Part shown: positions 3,215 to 59,849 of the stretch, in pieces | Position numbering within the stretch: position 1 is the stretch's first letter | Layout of the letters: each line of letters starts with the position of its first letter | Assembly (NCBI GenBank): GCA_036785375.1 | Contig: JAWMAR010000104.1 | Coordinates: forward strand, 3,782,001-3,846,000 | Length of the DNA: 64,000 bases | Reading direction: 5' to 3' | DNA from: Leucoraja ocellata | Lineage: Eukaryota | Translations under genes and position numbers: made by a program | The notes under the pieces: model-generated | What the model was told of the DNA's origin: nothing | What the model saw: only the letters and a program-made list of their open reading frames with translations | Databases searched by the model: none

Positions 3215-3382
3215 CGTCCGGAGCTGCTGCCTATCCAGTGTCCACGGCGTCTGATCGGACGCGATGGCGGCTGGGTATTGTAAGGGGCTGTGCAGATCAC
3301 CAGTTCCCTCCGACCTCCTGATTGGTGAATAATGTAGCAGTCATATCCGACCAATTACAATTCAGCTCATTTCTTAAAGCAG
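3215..3382 (-). promoter_or_regulatory. Variable-exon promoter module of V1
   Basis: CpG-containing block repeated at the same distance upstream of all nine exons: GATGGCGGC 3263-3271, ATTGG 3321-3325, CCAAT 3351-3355, TTCTTAAAGC 3371-3380. Confidence 0.8.
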
Positions 3383-3764
3383 GAACGGCTTAACTTGGCG
3401 CAGACTTGTCACATTTATTGTTGCGTAATTGAAATTGCTTTTAGCATTTTGGGTGTTCTTACTTACTGTGAAAATTTCCCACCAGAACCGAATTTTCATG
3501 AGCTACAATACAGTGAATATCCTAAAGATGAAATATGGAAACTTATGATTTCAGGAACGTGGTCAGTAGAAAGAACTGAACTCAACTTGCTGCGAATCTA
3601 ATTTCATGCATCTTCCAACGTGTCTTTACAATCGTTGCGATCTGGCAATATGCAGTGACAAAAGGATGTCATTCTGTCTTTGAATCGAACTAAAAATACC
3701 TGATGTAAGGTTTATAGCTGAACTGTCGATATTCCCCCTCCATACTATACGTTGTACTAATTGA

Positions 3765-4011
3765 AACATAGACATAGAAACATAGAAATTAGGTGCAGGA
3801 GTAGGCCATTCGGCCCTTCGAGCCTGCACCGCCATTCAATATGATCATGGCTGATCATCCAACTCAGTATCCCGTACGTGCCTTCTTGCCATACCCCCTG
3901 ACCCCCTTAGCCACAAGGGCCACATCTAACTCCCTCTTAAATATAGCCAATGAACTGGCCTCAACTACCCTCTCTGGCAGAGAGTTCCAGAGATTCACCA
4001 CTCTCTGTGTG
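3765..4011 (-). mobile_element. 5'-truncated CR1-clade LINE 3' end
   Basis: (CATAGAAA)-type tail and CR1 3'UTR-like sequence; AATTGA target-site duplication at 3759-3764 and 4012-4017; absent from paralogous spacer at ~19200. Confidence 0.8.
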
Positions 4012-4328
4012 AATTGACAAACAATATTTTCTCAGGCACTCTACCAGTTTCTGGTTTCATATCTACTAAATATTGAACTTATAATAATTATATATTACCA
4101 TGCCCTCGCTGATATTAATTGTTGGTATTGCATTTACTTACCACCACTCTTACGGGAGAGCCATCAGCAAAAGGACTGCACTGATTCATGAAGGCGTCTG
4201 AATAGCACCATTTCAAGTGAAATTAGGGAAGGATAAATCATTGTTCTTGCATAAAACACTTGCATCCAAGATACGAAGAAGGGCACGACAGATGGTTGAA
4301 AACTGCTGATTCTAAAAACATGGCTTTA

Positions 4329-9033: not shown

Positions 9034-11463
9034 CTCATTATTCACACGGCAGTTGGCGTTTTCAGAACTTATCAGTCCTGTTTTTTTCTGGATATAATCA
9101 TTTGCTGTAGATAGCCCACATGTTTGCGTGGTCCTTAAATCTCTCTTCGCAGACTGCAACGTTGAACAAGACTCGTAACGGTAACTCTGAGAAAGCGGAT
9201 CACCTCCGAACACCTCAACGTAGTTCGGTGGTATCTGAAGACTTCTGCTGGCGTTTTGAATCCCATTCAGAGAACTACTTGACTCCAAACAGCAGCAGAC
9301 GTTCAGATAACCATATTGACGTCCAACGCCATTTCTGTTTTTATAAATCTTGACAGTCAGGATAATTAAAATCACGAGGAAAATGATAGATGTCGTTCCT
9401 AAGGCTATGACCAAAGAAAGGTTCAAATCTGGAGAGAAAACGTGATCTTTAGCAAGACTGGTGGCACTGGATATCGTGTCGCCTCCTTTCACAGATAGTA
9501 CAATGGTCACAGTGGCTGAAAGCGATGGGATTCCATTATCTTTTACAACAATCACCAGCCTTTGTTTAGATGCATCCTTTGTCTCAATACCACGGATGGT
9601 CCAAATTTCCCCAGTATCCTCTGAGATAGTAAATAGATTACGATGGGTGGCCTGAAAAACATGATATGTCAGACGGGCATTCTGACCTGAGTCGGCGTCA
9701 ATAGCGGATACCTTGGCAACTAGGTATCCTGGTTCTGCAAACCTCGATATTGTCTCCATTACAGTTGACCCATGTTCGGGCAAAGGATTCACGATCACTG
9801 GAGCGTTATCGTTCTGATCGAGGATAACAACGTCCACTGTAATGTTACTGGAGAGAGGTGGGACTCCAGAATCCCGCACCAATACATGGATCTGGAAGTT
9901 TTTCAATTGTTCGTAGTCAAATGATTTCTGAGCAAATATGACACCATTCTGTGCGTTAATGGAGACATACGAGGCCACGACTGAATTCAGGATAGTAAAG
10001 TTTAATCGTGCGTTTTGTCCCGTGTCTGGATCATGGGCTGTGAGGGAGAATATGGAATCCCCAATAACGTTGTTTTCCATGACATTTGCCGTGTATGCAG
10101 CCTGCGTAAACCTCGGCGCGTTATCATTTAAATCTGAAATGTCTACACGGATATTTTTCGTAGATGTGAGCGGTGGGTCCCCAGCATCCGTGCATGTCAC
10201 AGTGATGTCATACCTGGGGGTAGTTTCTCGATCCAGTCCGTATTGTACAAGCAGTTTCCAATTATTCTTCATGGAGGATTCCATCTTAAAGGGCAATTTA
10301 TTCGGAATTTGACATTGTACGTGCCCGTTCTGTCCAGAATCTTTATCTTCTGCGCTGAGTAGGGCGACAATGGTTCCGATTGGAACATTTTCTGCCACTG
10401 CACTAGACATGGATGTCAATAACACTTCAGGGGCATTGTCATTCACATCGACAACATCCACCAACACATCACAGTGTTGAGAAATCGAAGGTGTACCTTT
10501 ATCGGTTGCTTGTATATTGATCACAAATGTTTTACTTTCTTCAAAGTCCAGATGTTCATTGAGTTTGATTTCACCAGTTTGGGAATTCACGCCAACTAAA
10601 TGACGAACATCAGCAGAGTTACGGCTGCTGAGAGAATATGTTATCTCCCCATTAGGGCCATCGTCTAAATCAGTGGCGTTTAACGTAATAATCAGTCTTC
10701 CTACGAGAGCCGATTCCACCATACTGACACTATAAACCGCTTGTGAGAAAACAGGAGCATTGTCGTTCGCGTCTTTCACTCTGACAGTTACCTGAACCGT
10801 ATCCGATCTTAGAGGGACTCCGCCGTCTTCAGCAAGCACCGTTAAGTCATGGGTCGATTTCGTTTCTCTATCCAGGGCCCGCTGCAGCACTAGCACCGGT
10901 AAATTTCCTAGCCTAGCGCGTTCTTGTACATCAAGAATGAAATATTCATTAGGAAGGAGCTGGTAAGTCTGCAAGGAGTTCGTCCCAATGTCCGGATCGT
11001 GAGCGGGCTCGAGGGTGAATCGCGCTCCCGGTGCCATATTCTCTGAGATTTCAAGGCGGATCTGGCTTTTGGGGAAACTGGGAGCGTTGTCATTTACATC
11101 GAGTATCTCCACTTCCACCTGGTGAAGGCTGAGGGGATTTTCAAGCACGACGTTCAAGGGTAAAATGCAATCGATGCTCGGGCCGCAAAGTTGCTCCCTG
11201 TCGATTCTCTCATTGACAAATAAAATTCCTTTTGCCAAATTTACATCAACATATCGCTTCATCTGGCTGGGTGCCAGCCGCAAACTGCGAGCCGGGAGCT
11301 GCTTTAAATCTATCCCCAAATCAATTGCGATATTCCCAACAAAGGCACCCAGTTGCAATTCCTCTGGTACTGAATATCGAATCTGCCCAGAAGCAAGGTC
11401 CCAGGGGCAGAAAAAGCAGCACAATAGTCGGTATTTGAGCAGCCAACATATATTATCTCTCAT
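9034..11463 (-). CDS. Clustered protocadherin variable exon V2 (type A), 810 codons; read-through ORF ends at 8995
   Basis: Full SP-EC1-6-TM-VCD architecture; donor GAG|GTGAGT at 9033-9028; 6-aa deletion in cytoplasmic tail relative to V1. Confidence 0.96.
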
Positions 11464-11637: not shown

Positions 11638-11805
11638 CCGTCCGGAGCTGCTGCCTATCCAGTGTTCACGGCGTCTGGTCGGACGCGATGGCGGCTGGGT
11701 ATTGTAAGGGGCTGTGCAGATCACCAGTCGCCTCCGACCTCCTGATTGGTGGATAATGTAGCAGTCATATCCGACCAATTACAATTCAGCTCATTTCTTA
11801 AAGCA
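11638..11805 (-). promoter_or_regulatory. Promoter module of V2
   Basis: Same motif order as V1; identical by eye to 33868-34035. Confidence 0.8.
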
Positions 11806-13162
11806 AGAACTGCTTAACTTGGCGCAGATACATTTATTGTGGCGCAATTGAAGTTGCTTTTAGCATTTTGGATGCTCCTACTTACTGTGGAAAGTTATTC
11901 CCAGAAGGGAATATTCATGAACTGTAATACAGTGAATATCTTAAAGATGAAATATGGAAACTTATGATTTCAGGAATGTGATCAAAAAAAGGAAATTGAC
12001 TCAACCTGCTGCGAATCTAATTTCGCGTATCCTTCATTATAACTTTACTATCGTGGGGATCAACCAGTGACAAAAGGCCGTCATTCTACATTTGAATCGA
12101 ACGAAAGGTACCTGATGCATGTTTTCGACCTGAACCGTCAACATTTTCCCCACCTCATCCCCGCGCCCCCCTGCCCTCAACCCGTGTTGCTCGACGCGCG
12201 GAGTTCAACTTGCAGATAGTTTGTTGATTCGGTTTAAATCACCCACAGTCTTCTATGTCTTCAAAACATATAACCAAAGATACACCGAAATAAATGTCCT
12301 ATTTGTTAGTCTGTTTCAAACAAACCAGTCAACAGCACCTTAATTTCCGAAATATAATTGTTATATTGTCTGGCGGCTTCAATAAGTAGCAGAGAACTTA
12401 TATTTTAACAATAGTACTAGTTGTTATATTTCAAAGGTTGCACGCAAGTACTCTTATCAAAGTTAAAACTATCAACGTGGCTGTATTTCTTTAACATGCG
12501 AACCATGTATTTACTATCGTGTTTACCGTTATAATCTCCTTCAAGCTCTGATAATATATCATATCTACAGGCAATGCTCCGGATCAAACTACCAGTTGTA
12601 CCAGTTGGAAAACAGAATTGTCACAGGTGCTTTAGCATTTCCCGGTTTAATATCTACTGAATGTTGAACTTAGACTAGTAATTATCTATTACCATTCCCT
12701 CGCAGATACTAATTGGTGGTATTCGAATTCGTTGCCAATAGTCTAACGGGAGAGCCATCAGCGCAAGGACTGCACTGATTCACGAAGGCGTCTGAACAGA
12801 ACTATTTCAAGGAAAATTAGGGAAGGATAATGTCTTGCATTAAACACTTGCATTCGAGTTACAAAGAAGTGTACGACAGGTTGAATGCTGATTCTAAAAT
12901 CATGGCTTCACTGCAGTAATTCATAGGAACTCTGTTTGGGGGCCGCCTCTCCTGCTAAGCACATGCGGAAGACATCGGTTAAATGCAAATACAAAGTTAC
13001 ATGGAGGGAAGTTTGCTGATTCCCATACGATATTGATTAGTAACAATATTCATTGGATAAGGAAACAGTCCCAACCCATATGGAATAAGTCATGAGGTCA
13101 TAGATTCATGCAGTACAGAAGTTCATAACGTCCAACGTGCCCCAGCTAAGTCATTCCCAGAC

Positions 13163-13192
13163 AATAAAACTCTGATCTTGGGGGTGTGTGTG

Positions 13193-13261
<69 letters not shown>

Positions 13262-15629: not shown

Positions 15630-18074
15630 CTCGTTATTCACGCGGAAGTTGTTTTCAGAACTTATCATTTCTGGGTTCTCTTTACCAATAGTTCTTTTCG
15701 GCAGATAATGCATTGCTGGAGATAGCCCACACGTTTGAGTGGTCCTGAAATCTCTCTTCACGGACTGCAATGTTGAACAAGACTCATAACGGTAACTTTG
15801 AGAAAGTGGATCACCTCCGAAGACCTCAACGTAGTTCGGTGGTATCTGAAAGCTTTTGCTGGCATTTTGAATTCCATTCAAAGAACTCCTTGATTCCAAA
15901 CAACAGCAGACGTTCAGAGAACCATATTGGCGTCCTACGCCATTTCTGTTTTTATGAACCTTAGCAGCAAGGATAACTAAAACCACGAGGAAAACGATAG
16001 ATGTCGTCCCTAAGGCTATGACCAAAGAAAGGTTCAAATCTGGAGTGAAGACGAGATCTTTAGATAAACTGGTGGCACTGGATATCGTATCTCGTCCTTT
16101 CACAGACAGTACAATGGTCACTGTGGCTGAAAGCGAAGGGAATCCATTATCGTTTACAACAATCACCAGCCTTTGTTTAGATGCATCTTTTGTCTCAATT
16201 GCACGGATGGTCCAAATTTCCCCAGTGTCCTCTGAAATAGTAAAAAGATTACGGTGGGTGGCCTGAAAAATATGATAAGTCAGACGGGCATTCTGACCCG
16301 AGTCGACGTCAATAGCGGATACCTTGGCAACTAGGTATCCTGGTTCTGCAAACCTGGATATTGTCTCCATTACAGTTGACCCATGTTCGGGCAAAGGACT
16401 CACGATCACTGGAGAGTTATCGTTCTGATCGAGGATAACAACGTCCACTGTGACGTTACTGGAGAGAGGTGGGACTCCAGAATCTCGCACCACTACATGG
16501 ATCTGGAAGTTTTTCAATTGTTCGTAGTCAAACGATTTCTGAGCATTAATGACACCATTCCGTACGTCAATAGAGACATACGAGGCATCGATTGAATTCA
16601 GGATAGTAAAGTTTAGTCGGGCGTTTTGTTCCGTGTCTGGATCATAGGCAGTGAGGACGAATATGGAATCCCCAATAACGTTATTCTCCATGACATTTGT
16701 CGTGTATGCAGCCTGCGTAAACCTCGGTGCGTTATCATTTACATCTGAAACATCTACACGGATATTTTTCTTGGTTGTGAGCGGTGGGTCCCCTGCATCC
16801 GTACATGTCACAGTGATGTCATACCTGGGGGTAGTTTCGCGATCCAGTCTGTGTTGTACAAGCAGTTTCCAATTATTCCTCACGGATGATTCCAGCTTAA
16901 ATGGGAGCTCATTCGGAATTTGACATTGTACATGTCCGTTCTGTCCAGAATCCTTATCTTCTGCGCTGAGTAGGGCGACAATGGTTCCGATTGGAACATT
17001 TTCTGCCACTGCACTGGACATGGTTGTCAATGACACTTCAGGGGCATTGTCATTCACATCGATAATATTCACCAACACATCGCAGTGTTGAGGTATTGCG
17101 TCAGGTCCATTGTCGACTGCTTGGATATTAATCACAAATGTTTTGCTTTGTTCAAAGTCCAAATATCCTTTCAATTTGATTTCACCGGTTAGGGAATTCA
17201 CAGTAACTAATTTTCGGTCGTCAGCAGAATTATGGGTGCTAAGAGAATATGTTATCTCTCCATTAGGGCCATCGTCCAAATCAGTGGCGTTTAACTTAAT
17301 AATCAGACTACCTGTGGGAGACGACTCCAGCAGACTGACACTATAAACCGATTGTGTGAAAACAGGAGCATTATCGTTCGCGTCCTTCACTCGGATAGTT
17401 ACCTGAACCATACCCGATCTTACAGGGACTCCGCCGTCTTCAGCAAGCACCGTTACCTCATGGGTCGATGTCGTTTCTCTATCCAGGGCCCTCTGCAGCA
17501 CTAACACCGGTAAATTTCCTCTCCTAACGCGTTCTTGTACATCAAGAATGAAATACTCATTGGGGAGGAGCTGGTAAGTCTGCACGGAGTTCGTCCCAAT
17601 GTCCGGATCGTGAGCGGCCTCGAGGGGAAATCGCGCTCCCGGTGCCATATTCTCTGAGATTTCAAGGCGGATCTGGCTTTTGGGGAAACTGGGAGCGTTG
17701 TCATTTACATCGAGTATCTCCACTTCCACCTGGTGAAGACTGAGGGGATTTTCAAGCACGACGTTCAAGGGTAAAATGCATTCGGTGCTCGACCCGCAAA
17801 GTTGCTCCCTGTCCATTTTCTCATTCACAAATAAAATCCCTTTTGCCAAATTTACGCCAACATATCGCTTCCTCGGGTTGGGCGCCAACCGCAAACTGCG
17901 AGCCGAGAGCTGATTTAAATCTATGCCCAAATCAATGGCGATATTCCCAACAAAGGCGCCCAGTTGTAATTCCTCGGGAACAGAATAACGAATCTGTCCA
18001 GAAACAAGGTCCCAGGGACAGAAAAAGCAGCAAAATAGTCGGTATTTGAGCAACCAAAATATTTTCTCTCTCAT
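15630..18074 (-). CDS. Clustered protocadherin variable exon V3 (type A), 815 codons; read-through ORF ends at 15621
   Basis: Full architecture; donor GAG|GTGAGT at 15629-15624. Confidence 0.96.
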
Positions 18075-18250: not shown

Positions 18251-18418
18251 CCGTCCGGAGCTGCTGCCAATCCAGTGTTCACGGCGTCTGATCGGACGCG
18301 ATGGCGGCTGGGTATTGTAAGGGGCTGTGCAGATCACCAGTCGCCTCCGACCTCCTGATTGGTGGATAATGCAGCAGTCATATCCGACCAATTACAATTC
18401 AGCTCGGTTCTTAAAGCA
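18251..18418 (-). promoter_or_regulatory. Promoter module of V3
   Basis: Same motif order; shares private substitutions with the V4 promoter. Confidence 0.8.
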
Positions 18419-19773
18419 AGAACTGCTTAACTTGGCGCAGACTTGTTACATATATTGCTGCGGAATTGAAGTTGCTTTTAGCATTTTGGATGCTGTCACT
18501 TTCTGTGGAAAGTTACCCCCAGAACCGAATTTTCAGGAACTGCAATAGTGAATATATAAAACATTAAATATGCGGGGAAAAATGATTTCAGGAATGATAT
18601 CAGAAGAAATAAATTAACTCGCCTTTCTGCGAATCTAATTTAATGTATCCTTCAACATGTCTTTACAATCGTGGCGATCGGTTAATAGCCAGTGACAGAA
18701 CGCCTTCAGTCTGCCTTTGAATAGTATCAAACACATCTGGTGCTTAGCTTCGACCTGGACTGTGGATAATTTACCCCTCCCCTCTCCTCAACAGATGCTG
18801 CTCGACCCGCTGAGTTCAATCAGCAGATAGTTTGTTGCTCCTGATTCGACCATCTGCAGTTTTCTATGCCTTCAAAACATATAACTGAAGATTCACTTAA
18901 ATGAATATATCGTTTGTTGCTCGGTTTCACACGAAGCCGGTTCATTTCTGGGATCATATTTTTATGTTGTGTGGTGGCTTCAATAAATAACAGAGTAAGT
19001 TACATTGCATCACTTATTTTCACATTTTAACGGTTACACGCAAGACCTCTCTCTAAAATAAAACGTTCATCGTGGTTGTCTTTCTTTAAAATGTAAATAA
19101 TGTAATTGCTATCGTGCCTCCAGTTAAAATCTTCTGCTATAAGATAAAATCTACAGGCAATTCTCCTAATCATAAGGAGTAAGTTGTTGATTGTTATTGT
19201 ACTAATTGCAAAACAAATATTTTCCCAGGTACTTTAACATTGTCTTGTTCCAGTTAAATGTTAAACTTAGACTTGTAAATTATGTATTACCATTCCCTCG
19301 CTGATACTGTGTTAGTATTGGAATTCCTTGCCTGCAGCCTTACGGGAGAACCTTCAGCACAGGCACTGCTCTGTTTCTCGAAAGCGTTTCTAAACCACAT
19401 TTTCAAGAAGAATGAGGGATGGTTAAAACACTGGGTTGCCGAAAACATCTGCATTCAATATTAAAAAAAATAAAATCATACAGATCGTTGAAAACTGATT
19501 CTTTTAAATTCACGGATTTACTGCAGCAATTCGTCAGAACTCGATCTGGGTCCCTCCACCCTTGCTAAACGTCCGCAGACACCTGTTCAAGGCAAATTCA
19601 ATGTTAGATGCGGTAACATTTCTTGATTCCCATACGATATTGATCAGTATCAATATTCCCTGGACAAGGAAGCAGTCCGCACCTACAAGGAACAAGTCAT
19701 AGGATCAAGGAGTCAAACAGTGCTGAAGCAAATCCTTCGGCCCAACACGTACATGACGACCAATGTGCCCCAT

Positions 19774-24773: not shown

Positions 24774-24941
24774 CCGTCCGGAGCTGCTGCCAATCCAGTG
24801 TTCACGGCGTCTGATCGGACGCGATGGCGGCTGGGTATTGTAAGGGGCTGTGCAGATCACCAGTCGCCTCCGACCTCCTGATTGGTGGATAATGCAGCAG
24901 TCATATCCGACCAATTACATTTCAGTTCCGTTCTTAAAGCA
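24774..24941 (-). promoter_or_regulatory. Promoter module of V4
   Basis: Same motif order; near-identical to V3 promoter. Confidence 0.8.
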
Positions 24942-40801: not shown

Positions 40802-40992
40802 TTCCAGTAGAAGTCATTCCAATGCTTTTAAAACCAGGCAGTATTATCTATTGTCCTTTCCAACGATAGGTCGGTGTTAAATAGAACCAAAACAACACAG
40901 AATACATCCGTACCTCTTGCGAATCTCTCCAATTATTTCATTCAATCGCTCGCAATCTCCTCCGCATTTGCGAGAGGATTCTTGCAACAATC

Positions 40993-41155
40993 CCACGGAG
41001 CTGCTCGCTATCCGGCTTTCACTGTGTCTGATTTTACGTGATGGCGGCCGCGTCTTGAAGGGGGCTGGCCAGATCACTAATCACACCTCGGCTCCTCATT
41101 GGTGCAGAAACTCATTGATATTCGACCAATCAGGATTCTGCTTGTTTCTTAAAGC
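40993..41155 (-). promoter_or_regulatory. Promoter module of V6 (diverged)
   Basis: GATGGCGGC, AAGGGGGCTG, AGATCAC, ATTGG 41098-41102, CCAAT 41126-41130, TTTCTTAAAGC retained. Confidence 0.75.
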
Positions 41156-42002
41156 TGGACGTGCTTAAAATAATGCAGAATATTGTTGTATTTATTGTTG
41201 CACAGATAAAATGTATTTCGGAATTGCAGATATTTATGTTGCCTTCTGGTGACTGTTTCAACGATCAGCGTATTGCGAAGCAACATTCTATTTATTACAT
41301 TCAAAGCCAAGTATGAAGAAAGGGGTTATGATGGGAAAAGATACATTTTAGGAATATCATCGGGCTACACGTTTCAATTCTAACAATTGTCCAGACACAT
41401 TATTCCTTTCTGAAATTACAACTACATTAGCTTGTAGAACTGGAAGTCAAAATTACCCCTTGTATTCAGGAATAAATTAACACTTAATTTTACAGAGAAT
41501 CTTAGTTTCGGAACGGAGCCTGATTCAGACGATGTACACAAATGAGCAAACCACACAAGTGAAAACGTGAAGGGCATGGGAAGTCTCGAAGACGCGGCAA
41601 AACTGCTGGGGAAACTCGGCTGGTTCGTCAGCATCTGTGGAAAATGAAATCTAACGCTATAAAGCAATTTGTTGGAGATATTAATAATCAAATTCATGCG
41701 GTTATTTGTAGAAAATCATTATTTTTTCTCGGTATATAGGCAAGTTTGTGTACCTCTCTCATTAGCATCCAAATCGCCATCAAGCGATTTCAGTTTTCAA
41801 TTTATAGCAAATAGAAATCAAATATTCGCGATAAAAGGGATGTTCCTTTACTTATTTATCAACATTAATTTTTTTGACGTTTTAATCATCCATCATATTT
41901 TTCATAAATCCAAATCCCTATGACCAAGCTTTCTTTGAAGGGAATTCAGGGAACAATGTGTATATTGCCGAAAATATTAATTTTCCTTCAAGAAGAGAGT
42001 AT

Positions 42003-44533: not shown

Positions 44534-46993
44534 CTCATAATTTGCACTGCAGTTTAATGCTTCAGACTGTATCATTCCCGGATTCTCTTTCCCAGTAGCA
44601 TGCTTCTGTACATAAGGCATTGCATTCGATGGTTGGTATGCTTGAGGTGTGATGTTTCTTTTCACGGACTGCAACGTTGAACACGATTCGTAACGGAAAC
44701 TCTGAGAAAGGGGATCACCTCCGAATACTTCGACATAGTTTGGTGGTATCTGCAGGCTCCTACTCGCCTTTTGAATTCCATTCAGGGAACTGCTTGATTC
44801 CATACAGCAGCAGACGTTCAGCGAACCGTGCTGGCGCCCCACACCATTTCTGTTTTTATGAACCTTAATGGCAAGGATAATTAAAATCACGAGGAAAATT
44901 ATAGATGTTGTCCCTAAGGCTATGACCAAGTAAAGGTTTAGATCAGGAGGGGAGTCACCATATTCAGACGAACTGGTGGCACTTGACAATGTCTCACTCC
45001 CTTTCACAGATAGTACTACAGTGAGAGTAGCAGAGAGAGATGGCGTTCCATTGTCCGTTACCACAATCACAATCGTTTGCTTGGAGGCATCCCTGATGCC
45101 AATACCACGGATAGTCCAAATTTCTCCCGTGTCTGGTGAAATAGTAAACAGGTTTTGATGAGTAGCCTGAAAAATCTGATAATACAAATGTGCGTTTTCA
45201 CCTGCGTCCGCGTCAGTAGCTGATACCTTGACAACTAGGTATCCAGGTTCTGCAAACCTGGATATTGTCTCCATTGCTGTTGACCCATATTCGGGCAAAG
45301 GACTCACTATGACTGGAGCGTTGTCGTTCTGATCAAGGATAACAAAATCTACAGTAGTGTTAGTGGTGAGTGATGGGACTCCAGAATCCTGCACCCGAAA
45401 GTATATTTTGAATGTTTTTAATTTCTCGTAGTCGAAGGATTTCTGAGCAAATATGACACCGCTCTGTGAATTGATGGAGACGTACGATGCAATGGAGAAG
45501 CCCTGAACTTGAGAGGGCAGGGTAGAATAGTTGAGCCGGGCATTCTGTCCTAAATCTGGATCAAAAGCAGCCAATGTGAATATGGAAGCCCCGATGACGT
45601 TGTTCTCCATGACATGAGCGGTGTGAACCGTCTGAGCAAACATCGGTGCGTTATCATTTACATCGGAAATCTCTACACGAATCGTTTCCGTAGATATTAG
45701 ACTGGGGTGCCCAAGGTCCGTGCAAGTTATGGTAATGTCATACCTGGAGGTAGTTTCTCGATCCAGCTTATGGTCTAGAAGCAATCTACTAAAATGTTCC
45801 ATAGACGAATCCAGTTTAAACGTAAATTTACTTGATATTTGACATTGTACTTGCCCATTTTCTCCAGAATCTTTGTCTTCTACGCTGAGTAGGGCCACTA
45901 TTGTCCCAATCGTGGCATCTTCTGGTATGGTACTTAACGTGGATGTTATCGACATATCAGGAGCGTTGTCATTCACATCGATAACATCCACCAACACGTC
46001 ACAGTGCTGGGGCAGTGCGTGAAGGCCATTGTCGATTGCTTGTACATTAATCTCAAAAAATGTGCTTTGTTCATAGTCCAATTGTACTTTCAGTCTGAGA
46101 TCGCCTGTTTTAGAATCGATGCTGAATATTTCAGGAACATTTTCAGAATTGTAGCGACTGATCGAGTAGGTTATTTCTCCATTGGCACCGTCGTCCAAGT
46201 CAGTGGCGTTTAATGTAATAACCAGGGATCCTAAGGGAGCCGATTCCAACAAAGCCACCTTGTAAACCGACTGCGTGAAAACAGGAGCATTGTCGTTTGC
46301 ATCCTGCACTGTGATCGTGACCCGGACCTTACCCGATCTCACAGGGACTCCCCCGTCTTCAGCAAACAGCGTTAACTCGTGGGTTGATACTGTTTCTCTA
46401 TCCAAAGGCCTCTGCAGCACCAACACCGGCATCTTTACTTTCCCACTGTGTGTCTGCACGTCAATAGTGAAATATTCATTGTGGATGAGCTGGTACGTCT
46501 GCAAGGAGTTCGTCCCAATATCGGGGTCGTGCGCGGCTTCCAGGGGGAATCGCGCCCCTGGTGCCATACCCTCGGAGATTTCAAGTCGGATCAGGCTTTT
46601 GGGGAAACTGGGAGAGTTGTCATTTACATCGAGTATCTCCACTTCCACCTGGTGAAGACTGAGGGGATTTTCAAGCACGACGTTCAAGGGTAAAATGCAA
46701 TCGGTGCTCGGCCCACAAAGTTGCTCCCTGTCTATTCTTTCATCCACAAATAAAATCCCTTTTGCCAAATTTACGTCAACATACCGCTTCCTCGGGCTGG
46801 GCGCCACCCGCAAACTGCGAGCCGAGAGCTGCTTTAAATCTAAGCCCAAATCAATTGCGATATTCCCAACAAAGGCACCCAGCTGCAATTCCTCGGGAAC
46901 AGAATAACGAATCTGCCCAGAAACACGATTCCAGAGCGAGAACAAACAGCAAAACACTTTGAATTTCAGCAGGCAGTATATGTTAAATCTCAT
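44534..46993 (-). CDS. Clustered protocadherin variable exon V7 (A-like EC1, long EC5 loop), 820 codons; read-through ORF ends at 44519
   Basis: Full architecture; donor GAG|GTGAGG at 44533-44528. Confidence 0.96.
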
Positions 46994-47173
46994 TTCCAGG
47001 ATAAGTCATTCCAATGGTTTGAACCCGAGACAATGCCTTTCAACAGCGATTTGTTTAAAATGGAAAAATCACAGGCAGAATATATCGGTACCTTCTTGCG
47101 AATTGTTCCAATACTTTCACTTATGTTTCAATTTTTCATATTCTCTCCAATTCGAAAGGAATCGTGCAGAAAT

Positions 47174-47340
47174 CGTCCGAAGCTGCTGGTTATCCGGTTT
47201 TCACGGCGTCTGAATGTAAATGATGGCGGCTGCGTATTGAAGGGGGCGATGCAGATCACCAGTCGCATTCCTGCTCCTGATTGGTCTACAACCAACAGTC
47301 ATAACTGGCCAATTAGAGAGGAGTTCGTTTTCTTAAAGCA
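47174..47340 (-). promoter_or_regulatory. Promoter module of V7
   Basis: GATGGCGGC, AAGGGGGCG, ATTGG 47280-47284, CCAAT 47309-47313, TTCTTAAAGC. Confidence 0.75.
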
Positions 47341-47929
47341 AAAACTACATAATTTGGCTCAGAGTTTTCTTTTTTTTTGCTGCACAATCAAATTTATTTT
47401 CAGCCGTTTAGATCCTTCAGAATATTGCAAAATGTGTAGCAGTGGGAGCATATTTTGAAGACCAACCGTACTAAACATCTTACATGATAAAATATGTAGA
47501 AACCATTTTGAGAATCAGGGTGAAATTAAAGAAAGTAATTGAGCATGTTAACAATTCAATTATTTCTATCCTTCACATCTGTTGATTACATCATAATTTT
47601 ATAATCTTGATCACCGAATTATTATCGTTGCCATATTGTTGCTGTGTTTCCGATCAGCAAATAAATCAATTGCATCATCAAATGGTGGTCGGGTTTCTGT
47701 ATCAAGCTCACAATATTCCGTCCTTCGTTATACTCAAAGTAAGTTATTTTCAGCTCTGAAGATTGATTAATAGCGGGTATTCTCCTCAATATACCTCGTG
47801 AATTAACTTTTTGTTCTTGCCTTTTCTAATGCAAAAAAAACCAAAACGTAAGTGCCCCGGCTTCCTCTAAAATCAGCATGACTGCGAATTCCCCAAGTTT
47901 TCTTTTGAGATTAAAGCATATTAAAACAC

Positions 47930-51112: not shown

Positions 51113-53554
51113 CTCAGGGACATTGCACTTTTTAGAATTCGCCAATCCACCAGTTTCATTCGAGATATAATTGTTTCCTCCTGTGGGAGTGCGCCCGTTA
51201 GAGCCGATAAAATATCTCTTCGTAGATTGCAGTGTCGAACATGACTCATAGCGGAATCTTTGGGAAAGTGGATCTCCCCCAAATACCTCAACATAGTTTG
51301 GTGGTATCTGAACACTTCTACTGGCCTTCTGAATTCCATTCAGAGAGTTTCGTGATTCAAAGCAACAACAGATACCAAGTGAACGGTGCTGGTAAACAAT
51401 ACCAGTCCTGTTTTTGAGTAATTTAATGGCAAGGATGACTAAAATTATAAGGAAAATAATCGATATTATTCCCAAAGCTATAACCAAGGGAAACCTCAAT
51501 TCAGGACTGAACCTTGGATCTGAAGGCGAACTGTTGACAATGGGGAACGTTTCACTATCAGTCCCAACTACAGATAATACTATAGTCACAGTAGCAGAGA
51601 GTGATGGAATCCCATTATCTTTTACCAAAACCACCAACCTTTGACGAGAGGCATCTTTGCTCACAATTGGACGGATTGTCCAAATGTCACCCGTGTCTGC
51701 AGAAATGGTGAAAAGATTATGAGTAGCTTGAGAAATGTGATAAGAGAGACGAGCATTCTGACCAGCATCGGCATCAGTGGCTGAGACCTTTACAACCAAG
51801 TATCCAGGTTCTGCAAATCTGGATATTGTTTCTTTTGCTGTTGAGCCATATTCTGGTGAAGGTTGTAAAATCACTGGAGCATTGTCATTCTGATCAAGGA
51901 TAACAACATTCACTGAAGCATTACTCGTCAGCGCTGGCGCACCAGAATCCTGCACTTTAATCTGTATCTGAAAGCCTTTGAATTGCTCGTAGTCAAAAGT
52001 TCTCCGAGCATATATGACACCGCTCTCCGAGTGAATTGAGACATAAAAGGCTATTGAGAAATTTTGAACTTCTGTCTCCAGGATAGAGAAGTTCAGTCGG
52101 GCATTTTCTCCTACATCTGGATCGAAGGCCGTCACGGAATATATAGAAGCCCCAATAACATTGTTTTCCTGAACATTTGCCGTGTACACCGGCCGAGAAA
52201 ACCTTGGAAAGTTGTCATTTACATCTGAAACCTCTACGCGGAAAGTTTTCTGCGAGGTAAGAGAAGGGTAGCCCGCATCCGTGCATATTATAGTGATATC
52301 GTATTTGGGGACAGTCTCCCGGTCCAGTGGACGTTGTACCAGAATTCTGTAATAGTTCTTGATAGATGAATCCAGCTTAAAGGGGAGTTGATTTGAAACT
52401 TGACATTGTACTTCTCCATTATGTCCGGAATCTCGGTCTTCTGCGCTGAACAGTGCCACTACCGTCCCAAGTGGAGCGCTTTCCGAGACAGTCCCTGACA
52501 AAGACCGCAGTGTCACATCCGGCGCGTTATCATTCACATCGACAATTTCCACCAATACATCACAGTATTCTGGTATTGCGCCAGAACCCTTATCCATCGC
52601 CTGTATGTTAATCTCAAAGGTATTGCTCTCTTCATAGTCTAAGTTCCCTTTGAGCCTGATTTCACCAGTTTTAGGGTTCACTTCAAAAAGCTTACGGGCA
52701 GCATCAGAAAGATGGCTGCTGAAAGAATAAACAATCTCTCCGTTGGGCCCTTCGTCCAGGTCAGTGGCGTTCAGTGTGATGAGCAGGAAGCCTCTCGGCG
52801 CAGATTCCAACAGGCTGACTTTATAAACCGACTGAGTAAAAACAGGCACGTTATCGTTTCCATCTTTCACGACGATTATAATCTGAACCGTTCCCGATCT
52901 CGGAGGCAAACCGCCATCCTCGGCTATCAGAGTTAAATAGTGGGTTGCTATTGTTTCCCTATCCAAAGGCTTCTCTAACAACAACACTGGGAGCTTTCTG
53001 GTTTCACTGCGCATTTGTACGTCGAGAGTGAAATATTCATTCGGTTGTAGCTGATAACTTTGCACAGAATTGGTGCTAATGTCAGGATCATGTGCGGGTT
53101 CGAGAGGAAATCGCATTCCCGGTGTTGCAAATTCTATGATTTCAAGGCGAAACTGTTTGTTTGGAAAACCAGGAGCATTGTCGTTTACATCGAGAATCTC
53201 CACCTCCACCGGGTACAGGCTCAAAGGATTTTCAAGCACAACATCCAAGGATAAGCGGCAGTCGAGATTAGACCCACAAAGCAGTTCCCTGTCGATGATT
53301 TCCTTTACAAATAAAATCCCACTTGTCAAATTTAAGTCGAAATACTGCTTCCTTGGACTGGGCGCTACCCGCAACCCGCGAATCGACAGCTGCTTTACAT
53401 CTAAACCCAAATCGACGGCGATTTTCCCAACAAAGGCTCCCTGTTGCAGTTCTTCAGGAATAGAATAGCGAATTTGCCCAAGTACAAGATCGCAGTTGGA
53501 GAGCACACAGTACAATAATAGACATTTTATCAACCAATATATTTTGTATCTCAT
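51113..53554 (-). CDS. Clustered protocadherin variable exon V8 (type B), 814 codons; read-through ORF ends at 51104
   Basis: Full architecture; donor GAG|GTAAGT at 51112-51107. Confidence 0.96.
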
Positions 53555-53744: not shown

Positions 53745-53912
53745 TAGTCCAACAGAACAGCTCGCTATCCGGTTTTCGCTGTGTCTGATCTTACATGATG
53801 GCTGCCGTGTCGTGAAGGGGGCTGTCCGGATCACTAATTACATCTCAGCTCCTGATTGGTGCTGCCCCTCATTGATATTCGACCAATGAGGGCTTTCCTG
53901 TTTCTTAAAGCT
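53745..53912 (-). promoter_or_regulatory. Promoter module of V8 (diverged)
   Basis: GATGGCTGC, AAGGGGGCTG, ATTGG 53855-53859, CCAAT 53883-53887, TTTCTTAAAGC. Confidence 0.75.
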
Positions 53913-55767
53913 GTAATGCATATAGTAGTACTGAAGTGTTGTATTTATTGCTGTGCATGTAAACTTTCATTCAGACTTGTGGATATTTTTGCTTATCTGG
54001 TCAATAGACTGCTGGTCCGAGTTCTTTTTTTTAAAATCCCAGTTATTCGAATTTATAATTTGAAGAATAAATATTAAAAAACTGTTTTGAGAGGAAAACA
54101 AATATAAGAAACAACAAAAATACTGATAATCTAATTCTATTCAAGATATATTTAAACGATATCTTCTTCATTTTCCAGCCATATTCAGTCTTTTTTAGTC
54201 GAGAAAGACAGATTGTTGATTGCCATTCAAAATCAATAACATTCATTTTATTGTGATATTTAACGGGATTATTGGAGATTTATTGGTATTTGGATAATTA
54301 AATACACAAACTAATTACATTAAAATATGCAGATGTTAGAACTGAAATAAAGACAGAAACGGCTCGATAAAGTTCCATGTTTCATGCCGCAGCTGTAAAA
54401 TAAATGTCTACTTCCTTTGCATACATTTCAGGACCATTTCGAAAAGAAGCATCGGCATTCGAATGTCTTGTATTAATTTGGGGAATGTCACTGTTTTTTC
54501 ACGAATAGATGAATAGCTGCCATGAACTGCTTTTTCAATTTTCATTGTACATCGTTCATGAGATTAGTCACCAGGTTGTTGTTCATATCGAATCACCACA
54601 GAGTTATGCTTCTTTAATTCTTTAGCCACTATATGCCACTGTAATCAACTTCACCGTTTACATCCCTCGCGGACATCATGCATTGATTTCCCTCACCGTC
54701 GATGTTTCATTCATTATGCAGTCTTCAAGTTTTTCTGCATGGCACAATCGTCTGATGCATCGACCACATGCTGGAAGCCACATGAATAGTGTTATATATG
54801 TTGAGAATACCGACTGAACTTGGCCTCCAGTAATCTTTAAATTATTTGGCTTACAAATGAAGATAAGTTTCTTTTGATTCGTTTAAAGCGAATTGTGGCA
54901 TGCGTGGTAAGTAAGTGATCGATTCAAGGAGAGTCTTGTTGGCTCTAACCCACAATCAGATCTTGCTCTCATGTTTCCAGACTCCTTTGCTTAACAAGCA
55001 GAGATGCGATTTTCTTGCTTGCCAAGCTTCTGAAAAGGTATCTCTCACGAAATTCCATTGAAATCTTTGATGGTAGGTCTATTCTTTGATAGGTGTTAAA
55101 TATCTCTGAATCTGCAACTGAACACACACCCACCCCTAAAAATGAAGTACATCCTTTGGGAAAATGTAACAGCTGGAAGGATCGCGTCGGAGTTATGAAT
55201 GACCATTTTCCAGTTGTTTAGATTAGCAACTTGAACAATAGCGACATTCTCGAAGGAAAAAAATTGCGATTGTTCTGTCTCCTTAAAATGCATTGCAATA
55301 ACCTCCTGGCGCTGATTCAAGGGCATGTTTAAAAATCCCCACTGTCATCACAATGATAAATGGCATTCAACTAAATCATGTAGTCACAGGGCATAGCAGC
55401 AAGCTTGTTGGCCAACTGTGTCCATGCCAACTATCGATTAACCATCTAGACTCTTGCCATTTATAAATATTTTCGTAGTCTTCTGCGGCTCCACCACCCA
55501 CTCTTGCTGATTCACATCATAGTGTGGGTGGTCAAAATATTTCCCCGATGCACTCTAAACTGGCGCTAATAACAATATACATTCTCTAGTTTTTGGCGTT
55601 TCTGTAATAGGGAAAGTTTTCCTACGCTCTACCTCATCTCAGTCACGCATACTTTTATAAATATAAATATGGTTTCACCTCAGTCTGCTCTGCTCCATAA
55701 AGACAAATACAGTATCCATAACCTCTCCTCATCAATAAAATTTCCCACAGTGCAATATCTGGTGAAC

Positions 55768-55967: not shown

Positions 55968-57070
55968 CTCAGATTACATCACGTTGCATTAATCAGGATT
56001 AAATTCTACCTGACATTGCACTTCCTCGTGAATTCCTTCCCAACAATTACGAGTAAACAGTAAACACTATTATTCAACAGCACATTCCTAGACTGAAATG
56101 TTTTTAAAAAACGATTAAATGAATATGAGATGTACTGAAACTATTGTGCATTCTCATAATCAATCATTAAATCCAAGGGACAAGGAACGTCTTGAAAATA
56201 GCCAATCAAACGACGGTATCTGGAATGTGATGACAATTTGGTGATTGCAATTATTCTGTGTTTTTAATATTAAGAGCATGTACAAATCATACACAAATTA
56301 ACAACAAAGTGCAACGCGTTATACTTGGTAGTCAGTCATTAGTTCTTCCGTCGGTTGACAGCATCTACAGTTCCTTCCTACACTTCGGTTTTTACGCACC
56401 GATAGTGAGAGGGAAACGGTGAAAACGTTCAGATTGATAGTTTTTCATCTTTCTTCGAATTAAATTCTAAATACAAAATGCTAAATCTTGTCTCTTCCTC
56501 AATGGAAAATGCTTGTCGTGCTGAACTTGTTCTAGTAGTTTCTATTTTAGTTAATTGTAGCTTGGAAGGTATTTAGCCTTTGCTTTTGGACTACCAGGTG
56601 ATTTAATCAATCCGGGATGGGTTGAGGTCATGGTAACCAGAAAGTATCCATCATATTTTAACGATATGGCTAGAATTCCCACGCTGCTGCTAAAGGAACT
56701 CATAGCATGTATGTTTAGCTATATATTTGTCATATGGTCATAGGAATTGGAGCTAGTTTTAACAATTGCTGAATATTTTGATATTTTAGTTGGGTTAAAA
56801 CTCTTCAAACCAGATATATGAGGTTCAAAGCAAATTGGTATACCCGGTATAATAACCATTGGAATGATGTATATATGAAAATAACAGAAACAGTCGGTGG
56901 CATAAACAACTAAAATGAATGCTCAAATTAATTTGAAGCTGTATGCACAACATATTTTCCCCGTGTTATTAATTTCGTTCCAGTAATTCCAATGGCCCAA
57001 GTATCACGAATATTTATATGTATCCAAATTAATTGTGTGACGATTTGACTTACTTTTCGAAGCAACTCAC

Positions 57071-59517
57071 CTCATTACTTGTATAGAAGTTGGAAGCTTG
57101 AGACTTTAACATTCCTGGAATCTCCTTACCATTAGGGTTCTTCCGGGTACACTGCATTGCTGCAGGAAGCCCACATGTTTGAAGTGTTGTGACGTCTCTC
57201 TTCGTCGACTGCAGTGTAGAACACGACTCGTAACGGAAGCTCTGAGAAAGTGGATCACCTCCAAATACCTCGACATAGTTTGGTGGTATCTGAAGGCTTC
57301 TGCTGGCCTTTTGGATTCCATTCAGTGAAGTTCTTGTTTTGAAGCAACAACAGACGGTGTGTGAACTTTGCTGGAGTCCCAGTCCATTTCTGCGTTTATG
57401 AACCTTAACAGCAAGTAAAATTAAAATTACGAGGAAAATGATAGATGTTGTCCCCAAGGCTATGACCAAAAAATGGTTCAGATCAGGGATGAACTTTGGA
57501 TCTGTGGACAAGCTGGTGGCACTAAAGACCTTTTGATTCTCTTTCACAGACAATGCTAGCGTCACCGACGCAGAAAGTGGTGGCACTCCATTATCTTTTA
57601 CAACAATCACAACTCTTTGCTGAGACGCATCTTTGCTCTCAATGTCACGCACGGTCCATATTTCCCCCGTGTCTGCTGAAATAGTAAAGAGGTTGCGATG
57701 GGTAGCTTGTAAAATGTGGTAAGTCAGGAAGGCATTCTGGCCGGAGTCGGCGTCTGTTGCTGATATCTTCACAACTAGGTTCCCAGGTTTAGCAAGCCTG
57801 GATATTGTCTCCGTTACTGTTGACCCATATTTAGACATAGGGTTCACGATCACGGGAGCATTATCGTTCTGATCGAGGATAAGAACATCCACACTACAGT
57901 TACTGCTCTGCGGTGGGACTCCAGAATCCCGCACCAGCACATGGATTTGGAAACTTTTCAACTTCTCGTAGTCAAACGATCTCTGAGCAAATATGACGCC
58001 ATTTTGTGAGTTAATGAAGACATATGAGGCTACGGATGAATTCACGATTGAAAACTTCAGTCGAGCATTTTGTCCCTCATCTGGATCGTAGGCTGTCAGG
58101 GAGAATATAGAACTTCCAATGACATTATTCTCATTGACATTCGCCGTGTATACAGGCTGCGTAAACCTCGGTGCGTTATCATTTACATCTGAAACATCTA
58201 CATGAATCGTTTTCTTGGATGCGAGGGGAGGGTTTCCTGCATCCGTGCAAGTCACAGTAATGTCATACCTGGAGGTAGTTTCCCGATCCAGTGTATCCTG
58301 TATTAGCAGTCTGCAAAAACTTTTCATACTTGTGTCCAGCTTAAATGGCAGTTTACTTGCAATTTGACAATGCACTTGCCCATTTCGACCGGAGTCTTTG
58401 TCTTCTACGTTGAGCAGTGCAACAACTGTTCCGATTGATGTATCTTCTGGTACCGTACTGGAGACAGATGTTAATGTTATATCAGGAGCATTGTCATTCA
58501 CATCGATAACATCCACCAATACATCACAATGCTGAGGCATTGCGTAATGACCATTGTCGACTGCTTGTACATTAATCTCAAAAAACATGTTTTCTTCGTA
58601 GTCCAAATGACTTTTCAGTCTTATTTCACCAGTTTTCGCATCTACGCCAAATAGTTCATGAAATTTTGCTGAATTTTGGCCACTAAGTGAATATGTAATC
58701 TCACCATTAGAACCCTCGTCCAAATCAGTGGCGTTTAATCTAATAATCAAAGTCCCCACGGCAGCTGTTTCCAACATTCTGACGCTATAAACCGATTGTG
58801 AGAAAACAGGATGGTTGTCGTTCATATCTTGCACCGTGATTGTTACTCGAACCGTGCCCGATCTCACAGGGACTCCGCCATCTTCTGCAAAGAGCATTAA
58901 CTCGTGGGCCGGTATTGTTTCTCTATCCAAGGCCCTCTGCAGCACTAACACTGGTATTTTTCCTTCCTACTGCGTGTCTGTACATCAAGAATGAAATATT
59001 CACTGGGAAGGATCTGGTAAGCCTGCAAGGAATTCGTCCCAATGTCCGGATCATATGCGGAATCGAGGGGGAATCGCGCTCCCGGTGCCATATTCTCCGA
59101 TATTTCAAGGCGGATCTGGCTTTTGGGGAAACTGGGAGCGTTGTCATTTACATCGAGTATCTCCACTTCCATCTGGTGAAGACTGAGGGGATTTTCAAGC
59201 ACGACGTTCAAGGGTAAAATGCATTCGGTGCTCGACCCGCAAAGTTGCTCCCTGTCGATTCTTTCATTCACAAATAAAATCCCATTCTGCAAATTTACGT
59301 CAACAAATTGCTTCCTCGGGCTGGGCGCCATCCGTGTTCTGCGAGTCGAGAGCTGCTTTAAATCTAAGCACAAATCAATTGAGATATTCCCGACAAAGGC
59401 ACCCAGCTGCAATTCCTCTGGAACAGAATAACGAATCTGCCCAGAAACAAGATTCCAGTGGGAGAATAAACAGCAAAACAATTGGCATTTCTGCAGCCAA
59501 TATATGTGAAATCTCAT
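57071..59517 (-). pseudogene. Clustered protocadherin variable exon V9 with one 1-nt frameshift in EC2 (pseudogene, null allele or sequencing error)
   Basis: ORFs 58945-59517 and 57050-58951 join into a complete Pcdh; ATG to donor is 2447 nt versus 2448 in V1/V4/V5; lesion maps to about the T5 run 58957-58961; donor GAG|GTGAGT at 57070-57065. Confidence 0.8.
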
Positions 59518-59684
59518 TTCCAGGAGAATTCATTCGAACGGTATGAATCCGAGACAATATTTTTAAACGGTATCTTGAATCATTACAAATACAACGTTTA
59601 CAATCTGTACCTTCCTGCGCGATGTTGGAATATTTTCATTTAAATATCATCACGTTGACGTACAATTCGAAATGAACTATACGG

Positions 59685-59849
59685 AAACCATCCGAGCTGC
59701 GAGCTATCAGGGTTCACGGCGTCTGATTTTGTTCAATGGCGGCTGAGTATTGTTGGGGGCTGTGCAGATCCAGTCCCATCTCAAGTTCTGATTGGTGGAC
59801 CGTAATAATCACATCTGACCAGTTGAAGTGCAGCTCGTTTCTTAAAGCA
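59685..59849 (-). promoter_or_regulatory. Promoter module of V9 (second CCAAT mutated to CCAGT)
   Basis: ATGGCGGC, GGGGGCTG, CTGATTGG, TTTCTTAAAGC retained. Confidence 0.7.

Follow-up and report, generated by a model that had tools for sequence, protein, structure and literature searches.

A conserved CCAAT-containing block without a CTCF motif match upstream of nine protocadherin-nu exons in Leucoraja ocellata

The protocadherin-nu array and its upstream block

The window, i.e. the whole 64,000-nucleotide stretch of L. ocellata DNA analysed here, harbors nine variable exons (V1 to V9) of the skate protocadherin-nu subcluster, all located on the minus strand. Between V1 and a Leucoraja erinacea model the identity is 98%.

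590..3037, minus strand: V1 variable exon, from the ATG (3037) to a predicted splice donor, with cadherin repeats and a cytoplasmic stretch
9034..11463, minus strand: V2 variable exon, ATG at 11463
15630..18074, minus strand: V3 variable exon, ATG at 18074
22150..24597, minus strand: V4 variable exon, ATG at 24597
31244..33691, minus strand: V5 variable exon, ATG at 33691
38348..40801, minus strand: V6 variable exon, ATG at 40801; older lineage, together with V8
44534..46993, minus strand: V7 variable exon, ATG at 46993
51113..53554, minus strand: V8 variable exon, ATG at 53554; older lineage, with V6
57071..59517, minus strand: V9 variable exon, ATG at 59517; frameshifted near 58950-58965

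For the EC2-3 tree, 41 of 120 hits with automatic names were submitted, and pieces of less than 170 residues or less than 38% identity were dropped; V9 was left out and named mammalian references were not included. The tree places V1 to V8 within a chondrichthyan clade of 26 rows together with Callorhinchus nu8, nu13, nu15 and nu17 (support 100/99), members of the elephant-shark Pcdh-nu subcluster of Yu et al. 2008 as cited through PMC2926608, PMC2764143 and PMC4978886. V6 and V8 branch outside a clade of V1 to V5, V7 and two shark proteins (support 95/94). When same-length PDB constructs are compared with the nu EC2-3 segment, all three queries match the C-type isoforms best among the clustered proteins, and non-clustered PCDH17 scores as high as gammaC4; in the tree, which lacks named mammalian references, nu is not joined to the C-type genes. 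The CpG observed/expected ratio is 0.87-1.01 over -400..+200 of the exons vs 0.71 for the whole window.

Upstream of every ATG (9/9) the same block of about 170 bp is found at approximately -345..-180. When the nine blocks are combined into a profile, it matches exactly these nine places in the window at E<=10, with no orphan copies at this threshold.

3214..3386, minus strand: V1 block; TTCTTAAAGC 3371-3380, reverse CCAAT 3351-3355, sense CCAAT 3321-3325, GATC 3295-3298, GCCCC 3284-3288, GCCGCCAT 3264-3271 and CAGAC 3249-3253
11638..11810, minus strand: V2 block; sense CCAAT 11745-11749, reverse 11775-11779
18251..18423, minus strand: V3 block; sense CCAAT 18358-18362, reverse 18388-18392
24774..24946, minus strand: V4 block; sense CCAAT 24881-24885, reverse 24911-24915
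33868..34040, minus strand: V5 block; sense CCAAT 33975-33979, reverse 34005-34009
40991..41159, minus strand: V6 block; sense CCAAT 41098-41102, reverse 41126-41130
47173..47345, minus strand: V7 block; sense CCAAT 47280-47284, reverse 47309-47313
53749..53915, minus strand: V8 block; sense CCAAT 53855-53859, reverse 53883-53887; GCAGCCAT variant
59688..59853, minus strand: V9 block; sense CCAAT 59791-59795, reverse box CCAGT; 2-bp deletion in the rigid module

A preliminary description had proposed a fixed order of plus-strand motifs upstream of each ATG, and this order is indeed present in all nine blocks. It comprises GATGGCGGC (7/9; GATGGCTGC in V8 and AATGGCGGC in V9), a GGGGC box (9/9), GATCAC (8/9; GATCCA in V9), ATTGG (9/9), CCAAT 28-30 bp further (8/9; CCAGT in V9) and TTCTTAAAGC (9/9). 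The named motifs lie 219-357 bp upstream of the ATG and not 180-345 bp, and AGGGGGC occurs only in V6, V7 and V8. With respect to a third-order Markov expectation of 0.10 each, TTCTTAAAGC is found nine times and GATGGCGGC seven times in the window.

Constraint on the block and its age

The blocks of V1 to V5 are 93-99% identical to each other, so that the nine copies represent about five lineages. Over V1, V6, V7 and V8, 87 of 165 block columns (53%) are invariant vs 37 of 167 four-fold sites (22%) in codons 130-810 (Fisher p=1e-8). For the five lineages, 74 of 165 block columns are invariant, compared with 25/105 columns flanking the block upstream (p=5e-4) and 60/180 downstream (p=0.04). No indel event was found within -290..-180 in any of the six pairs of V1, V6, V7 and V8, whereas the flanks show 2.2-3.5 events per 100 bp; the distance from CAGAC to CCAAT amounts to 72 bp in 8/9 blocks. 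Owing to the homogenisation of EC1, the excess over the four-fold sites of this repeat (11/26 invariant) does not reach significance (p=0.40).

The high identity among V1 to V5, the 1.07 kb that V3 and V4 have in common upstream at 96% and the conversion of EC1 are what one would expect if the shared motifs did no more than reflect recent duplications and gene conversion. This explanation is very improbable: between old paralogues the block exceeds both flanks and the four-fold sites in conservation and is free of indels, and in the segment between block and EC1 (-180..-40) only 40/140 positions are invariant, hence the block is not explained by one conversion tract extending from EC1. The block is under constraint. 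Since the branch of V6 and V8 lies outside the clade holding V1 to V5, V7 and the two shark proteins, the block likely predates the shark-batoid split.

CTCF, YY1 and NF-Y motifs in and around the block

The CTCF, NF-Y and YY1 scores depend on the matrices used here, and as the CTCF score is not calibrated on a real CSE, a degenerate CSE could be missed. The cut-off of 8 is the one used for skate CTCF sites in PMC10115646. On both strands the best scores of the nine blocks range from -4.8 to 4.6 bits, within a shuffled null with a median of -0.1 and a 95th percentile of 7.2. No sense-strand window exceeds 0.5 bits and none of the blocks (0/9) reaches 8 in this orientation, in agreement with the earlier statement that no obvious canonical CSE/CGCT-box CTCF site is present. 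The window contains 17 CTCF consensus hits, none of which is located in a block; a forward CTCF-like site at -454 in V6 lies outside.

Reverse-oriented CTCF binding, which had been suggested for the half-sites GATGGCGG and AGGGGGC, is not supported: one of the two named registers scores -18.7 to -2.7 bits and the other -6.1 to 4.6 bits, 4.6 being the best antisense value, and the CC dinucleotide of the motif is missing in 9/9 in either register. With neither strand of the block yielding a CTCF match, the idea fails. Sense-strand CGCT is absent from all nine blocks as described before; outside the block, a sense CGCT is present at -55 in 6/9 (not in V6, V8 and V9). Considered as a displaced CSE, the latter element scores only -18.7 to -24.9. 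The TGCACAGCC stretch was aligned by eye as the upstream module of a forward CTCF site and was likewise rejected, with the invariant GCCAT falling where G-rich bases are needed and with no sense window above the 0.5 bits given above.

Within the block, the GC-rich portion at -262 to -225 might nevertheless be a divergent CSE, with non-canonical CTCF binding and mammal-like promoter choice. Its position matches that of CSEs, about 200 bp upstream, and a many-finger protein would suit the rigid 35-bp stretch. Furthermore, Xenopus and zebrafish alpha CSEs are also devoid of the CGCT box, and oriented CTCF sites are found at skate TAD borders (PMC10115646). Also in favor of this reading, PMC2926608 reports a CGCT element for the elephant-shark cluster. 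The sense scores of the nine blocks and of the CGCT at -55 argue against such an element, as do GCCAT and GCCCC, both invariant at positions where the forward motif requires G-rich bases; a divergent CSE is thus regarded as unlikely.

An anchor shifted into the exon would be an alternative way to retain CTCF. Forward CTCF-like 19-mers are located at +335, within EC1, in seven of the nine exons:

2684..2702, minus strand: V1, 13.8 bits
11110-11128, minus strand: V2
17721-17739, minus strand: V3
24244-24262, minus strand: V4
33338-33356, minus strand: V5
46640-46658, minus strand: V7
59164-59182, minus strand: V9

These sites are sense-oriented, score 12.6-13.8 bits and could serve as loop anchors like the exonic CBS (eCBS) of mammalian alpha exons, which is situated at a distance of 700-1000 bp from the site in the promoter. 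Such a score at +335 is reached under synonymous recoding with P=0.03-0.04, and the match survives a Val-to-Met change in V9. However, the site is missing from V6 and V8 (-2.1 and 0.5 bits), where the block is present, and an equally good site arises somewhere in the recoded exon in 3-7% of trials (V1, V7). The four-fold identity of V7 to V1 to V5 is 0.74-0.93 in EC1 and 0.45-0.69 elsewhere; EC1 is thus homogenised and the seven copies count as about one event. The encoded His-Gln-Val has a patchy distribution among the nu proteins of sharks, and elephant-shark nu8, nu13 and nu15 do not have it. An exonic anchor is accordingly considered improbable.

The YY1 site put forward in the preliminary description stands with respect to its core, GC(C/A)GCCAT, which is invariant in 9/9 and variable only at a degenerate YY1 position, but the following NTT is found in 0/9. 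The full consensus, which we take to be GCCATNTT, is matched in none of the nine blocks, all 14 matches in the window being located outside. Seven of the nine blocks reach p<1e-4; the scores are nevertheless 2.9-12.7 of a possible 20, and 9.8 is reached by 15 of 574 background ATGG. YY1 on GCCGCCAT, acting together with NF-Y or the reverse CTCF half-sites, had been proposed to direct promoter selection and divergent transcription. In line with this, human alpha3, alpha6 and alpha12 CSEs are bound by YY1 in EMSA (PMC3333863), the alphaC1 promoter is divergent, and TTCTTAAAGC, 19-21 bp beyond the reverse CCAAT, could serve an antisense start. Given the incomplete YY1 matches and the failure of the reverse CTCF registers in scoring, this proposal is doubtful at best.

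REST and ZNF143/THAP11-type motifs do not exceed chance. For the NRSE/REST element TTCAGNACCANGGACAG the window holds three matches at three mismatches vs 1.78 expected, none in a block, and the best window score of the REST matrix is 9.0 of 36.6. A ZNF143/THAP11-type motif matches with two mismatches only in V1 to V5, with 195 matches in the window vs 201 expected. GCTTTAAG resembles the orphan promoter motif CTTTAAR, to which no factor was found assigned among the papers listed.

The CCAAT boxes, previously described as NF-Y-type sites, carry the full NF-Y flanking bases in the sense orientation in 9/9 and are thus strong candidate NF-Y sites. The sense boxes score 13.1-15.7 bits, a value of 13 being reached by 0/178 CCAAT outside the blocks in the window. 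The reverse box is weaker in V1 to V5 (8.8-9.4 bits, with 12/178 background boxes reaching 8.8). CCAAT boxes function in both orientations, and the inverted pair is therefore no evidence of divergent transcription. Its spacing of 28-30 bp in 8/9 blocks lies inside the 26-30 bp class of double-CCAAT promoters (PMC4889920). The skate block shares the two boxes and the NF-Y flanks with these promoters, but in the skate the boxes form an inverted pair that recurs throughout a tandem array.

Promoter selection in the nu array

Strong CCAAT boxes and the lack of a CTCF motif match in the block make NF-Y-driven switching without a promoter CTCF anchor likely. We favor, with a probability of roughly 0.6, that the skate nu block is a conserved, tandem-duplicated element lacking a CTCF motif match, which probably acts as a proximal promoter that NF-Y opens at its back-to-back CCAAT pair. 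Judged from its motifs, NF-Y would occupy the sense CCAAT and, in 8/9, also the reverse CCAAT, while the adjacent indel-free 110 bp (GATC, GCCCC, GC(C/A)GCCAT, CAGAC) would bind at least one further factor in fixed geometry. The predicted transcription start lies near -225 to -185, with the sense CCAAT about 60-100 bp further upstream. NF-Y access, methylation of the CpG-rich promoter and enhancer contacts that are not anchored would then determine which isoforms are produced, by analogy with the CBS-less mammalian alphaC2, gammaC4 and gammaC5 and not with the convergent CSE-to-HS5-1 loop. The enhancer region itself is located beyond the window.

Promoters of clustered protocadherins that have no CSE are a known kind. 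Mammalian alphaC2, beta1, gammaC4 and gammaC5 lack a CSE/CTCF site as in skate (PMC7811963 and PMC7087399), but these genes are single and ancient, whereas the skate has at least nine paralogues with one module; the likeness need not mean orthology. As in the skate, the alternate alpha, beta and gamma genes of mammals are preceded at about 200 bp by a conserved element (CSE/pCBS) in a CpG-rich background. The skate block differs from it in lacking both the CGCT box and a forward CTCF match, and its conserved region, which includes a double CCAAT, extends over about 170 bp, compared with a CSE core of about 22 bp. Similar in arrangement is Xenopus tropicalis pcdh-gamma2 15-36, which forms a contiguous, expanded CSE-less array of 22 exons (PMC4978886); about 200 bp upstream, these exons have a conserved motif of their own. 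That motif of 13 bp is shown as a figure; CCAAT has 0 occurrences in the text of that paper, whereas the skate block contains a CCAAT pair. The frog proteins are near gammaC4/gammaC5, while those of the skate fall into the nu clade of chondrichthyans. No account of the block module was found in the literature covered, in which the elephant-shark cluster is represented by PMC2926608, PMC2764143 and PMC4978886.

Stochastic promoter selection directed by CTCF/cohesin has its textbook example in the clustered protocadherins, and the regulation of CBS-less C-type promoters is listed among the open questions in PMC7811963. Tentatively, and with low confidence, cartilaginous fishes may run a large multi-isoform protocadherin array with stochastic isoform choice in single neurons but without CTCF anchors at the promoters, using an ancient NF-Y module and a second factor. 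CSE/CTCF would then be specific to bony vertebrates or to subclusters, and the module may be ancestral and kept in frog gamma2 15-36 and the mammalian C-type genes. With at least nine CSE-less paralogous promoters, the requirements of such a promoter can be read from a sharp phylogenetic footprint, and the species is a model for which ATAC and Hi-C resources exist (PMC10115646). The skate array thus offers a direct way to ask whether isoform diversity is possible without promoter CTCF sites, and whether the CTCF-less promoter state is ancestral.

Variable exons of the skate Pcdh-nu region

Nine large protocadherin variable exons (V1–V9) lie on the minus strand of the window, each ending in a GT donor.

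ATG positions of the large exons
3037, minus strand, V1
11463, minus strand, V2
18074, minus strand, V3
24597, minus strand, V4
33691, minus strand, V5
40801, minus strand, V6
46993, minus strand, V7
53554, minus strand, V8
59517, minus strand, V9

Cadherin, Cadherin_2 and Cadherin_C_2 domains are present in V1, V6 and V8, the three exons scanned. V1 shares 98% identity with a protein model of Leucoraja erinacea, and named elephant-shark matches include protocadherin nu8, nu13, nu15 and nu17, with which V1–V8 fall into a chondrichthyan-only clade in a 75-row tree of ectodomain cadherin repeats 2 and 3 (EC2-3; support 100/99). On the basis of these matches and this clade, the window is assigned to the skate Pcdh-nu variable region, of which it is a portion. 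Elasmobranch models among the 120 protein matches listed depict two alternative C-termini of the nu constant regions, one a basic gamma-like tail and the other a longer, His-rich tail.

V9 carries a frameshift near 58950-58965, adjoining an A run, and is otherwise open up to its donor; an Amblyraja protein sharing its N-terminus is full length. The frameshift is either an assembly slip or the mark of a young pseudogene. Between V8 and V9, an assembly gap of 200 N (55768-55967) could hide further exons. Open frames between exons at 5871-6593, 7721-8560, 28182-29162 and 48712-49302 look like LINE reverse-transcriptase remnants, presumably of CR1 type.

Four-fold sites of V7 and V1–V5 are 0.74-0.93 identical in EC1 and 0.45-0.69 elsewhere, indicating gene conversion, and in the last three bins V4 and V5 reach an identity of 0.95-1.00. 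Conversion is observed in EC1 of V1–V5, V7 and V9, and from EC5 to the cytoplasmic part of V4/V5. For the elephant-shark cluster, by comparison, little conversion is described. Upstream of V3 and V4, 1.07 kb is common at 96% identity (18760-19826 and 25026-26097), and about 240 bp adjoining the V3 block is missing in V4.

Composition, constraint and age of the upstream block

A conserved element of about 170 bp (the block) is located about -345 to -180 from each ATG, with the motifs named in the preliminary description all present in the fixed order given there. The invariant sense-strand skeleton of the nine copies comprises GCTTTAAGAA, a reverse CCAAT box, ACCAATxAG, GATC, GCCCC, GC(C/A)GCCAT and CAGAC, and a block profile search of the window matched these copies and nothing else. 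The sense CCAAT is separated from CAGAC by 72 bp and from GCCAT by 57 bp in 8/9 copies (70 and 55 bp in V9, whose block is the most degenerate); TTCTTAAAGC, also invariant, follows 19-21 bp beyond the reverse CCAAT. The CpG observed/expected ratio is 0.87-1.01 over -400 to +200 versus 0.71 for the window, which places the block on a CpG-enriched background. Closer to the exon, an invariant AGGTA at about -105 (9/9, presumed 5' UTR) resembles a splice donor. An out-of-frame ATG at -16 in all nine (e.g. 3051-3053, minus strand) opens an overlapping reading frame of 8 codons in 6/9 and 38-52 in V3, V8 and V9, and could dampen translation.

Since repeated motifs are expected from tandem duplication alone, what is informative is how far the older paralogues are constrained. 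In V1, V6, V7 and V8 taken together, 87/165 block columns are invariant, compared with 37/167 of the four-fold sites between codons 130 and 810 (p=1e-8); the difference from EC1 four-fold sites (11/26) is not significant (p=0.40) because EC1 is homogenised. For five lineages the count is 74/165 in the block versus 25/105 in the upstream (p=5e-4) and 60/180 in the downstream flank (p=0.04). Between -290 and -180 all six pairs of V1, V6, V7 and V8 are free of indels, whereas the flanks show 2.2-3.5 events per 100 bp. In the EC2-3 tree V6 and V8 branch outside a clade of V1–V5, V7 and white-shark and catshark proteins (support 95/94), a placement that probably makes the block older than the split of sharks and batoids, if promoters and EC2-3 share a history. 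The order of block identities agrees with this tree (V6-V8 0.85; V6/V8 versus the others 0.62-0.72).

NF-Y, CTCF and YY1 motifs

Scoring used JASPAR-style matrices, with their column sums as a check. The proposed NF-Y motif is borne out by the sense CCAAT, which scores 13.1-15.7 of 19.8 bits in 9/9 blocks, while 0/178 CCAAT outside the blocks in the window reach 13 bits. The reverse CCAAT scores 12.4-15.7 in V6–V8 and 8.8-9.4 in V1–V5, and is mutated in V9. At 28-30 bp, the spacing of the pair falls into one of the classes that PMC4889920 gives for double NF-Y sites.

In keeping with the preliminary description, which saw no obvious canonical CTCF site, the block contains no forward CTCF match: with the JASPAR-style matrix, and without a real CSE (the conserved element of mammalian clustered protocadherin promoters) as positive control, the best sense and antisense scores are 0.5 and 4.6 bits. 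Scores on both strands do not stand out from shuffled sequence (median -0.1, 95th percentile 7.2) and stay below 8, the cut-off that PMC10115646 applied to skate with this matrix. The reverse-oriented half-sites also suggested there are not supported: one register spans -18.7 to -2.7 bits and the other -6.1 to 4.6, and the CC of the motif occurs in 0/9 blocks in either. CTCF consensus matches with two mismatches number 17 in the window, none inside a block. V6 only has a forward CTCF-like site of 12.9 bits at -454 (41237-41255, minus strand). These comparisons establish the block, as a sequence element, to be old, constrained and rigidly spaced, with NF-Y-type CCAAT boxes and without a CTCF match.

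Some observations speak against a CTCF-less reading, among them the V6 site at -454 and a CGCT element that, according to PMC2926608, has been identified in the elephant-shark cluster. Sense CGCT occurs at -55 in 6/9, in surroundings without CTCF context. The block is not a CSE, and its being a divergent one is improbable. An exonic CTCF anchor could be sought in a forward 19-mer of 12.6-13.8 bits found at one position, +335, in 7/9 exons. However, this site is missing from V6 and V8, lies within the converted EC1 and encodes a peptide that is patchy in sharks, and thus counts as about one observation. Synonymous recoding reproduces the score at the same place with P=0.03-0.04, and for V1 and V7 it does so somewhere along the exon in 3-7% of trials. 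Such an anchor is retained as a rival reading, though an unlikely one.

The claimed YY1 motif stands only in part: GC(C/A)GCCAT is invariant and reaches p<1e-4 in 7/9, but NTT after the core is found in 0/9. At least 9.8 is scored by 15/574 background ATGG with the YY1 matrix. YY1 binds over the alpha3/6/12 CSEs (PMC3333863) and the alphaC1 promoter is divergent (bioRxiv 10.1101/360206), as reported there. The element is under selection. YY1 control with divergent transcription is improbable. Neutral paralogy, which would itself repeat the motifs, is a most improbable source of the shared block in view of its constraint. REST and ZNF143-type motifs occur at chance level only.

A proposed promoter without a convergent CTCF loop

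Our preferred reading, with a probability of roughly 0.6, is an NF-Y-opened, rigid-module promoter without a convergent loop from a forward CTCF site (CBS). NF-Y would bind the CCAAT pair and open the promoter, and the 110-bp module would bind partner factors in fixed geometry. Transcription is predicted to start about 60-100 bp downstream of the sense CCAAT box; CCAAT boxes typically lie 60-100 bp upstream of the start. Isoform output would be set by methylation, by the access of NF-Y and by enhancer contact that has no anchor, not by a convergent CBS loop.

EC2-3 of V1, V8 and V7 score 218-228 bits against the EC1-3 construct of alphaC2, 203-217 against gammaC3 and 192-203 against 4zpn/4zpo, with 4zi9, beta1 and 4zps lower (155-186). 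We take 4zpn/4zpo to be gammaC5, 4zi9 gammaA1 and 4zps gammaA8. Among clustered EC1-4 constructs gammaC4 is top for all three queries, for V1 by a margin of only 1 bit. PCDH17 does equally well or better, and nu is not joined to C-type-labelled rows in the 75-row EC2-3 tree; PMC2764143 treats nu as lacking a bony-vertebrate orthologue. Mammalian promoters, as described in PMC7811963 and PMC7087399, carry the CSE with its CGCT box as a forward CTCF site, except alphaC2, beta1, gammaC4 and gammaC5, and C-type genes (alphaC1/2, gammaC3-5) have constitutive or cell-type-dependent expression (PMC7811963). Xenopus gamma2 15-36, which group with gammaC4/gammaC5, are reported to lack the CSE and to have a 13-bp motif about 200 bp upstream (PMC4978886).

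By analogy with mammal, frog and construct scores, the skate block would work like a C-type, CBS-less promoter, C-type membership of nu itself being no more than possible. No description of this double-CCAAT module was found in the protocadherin-promoter literature searched, of which supplements or figures may show one. The CSE-less kind of promoter is already known from frog and mammal; the novelty lies in the double-CCAAT module and in how rigid and how old it is in nu.
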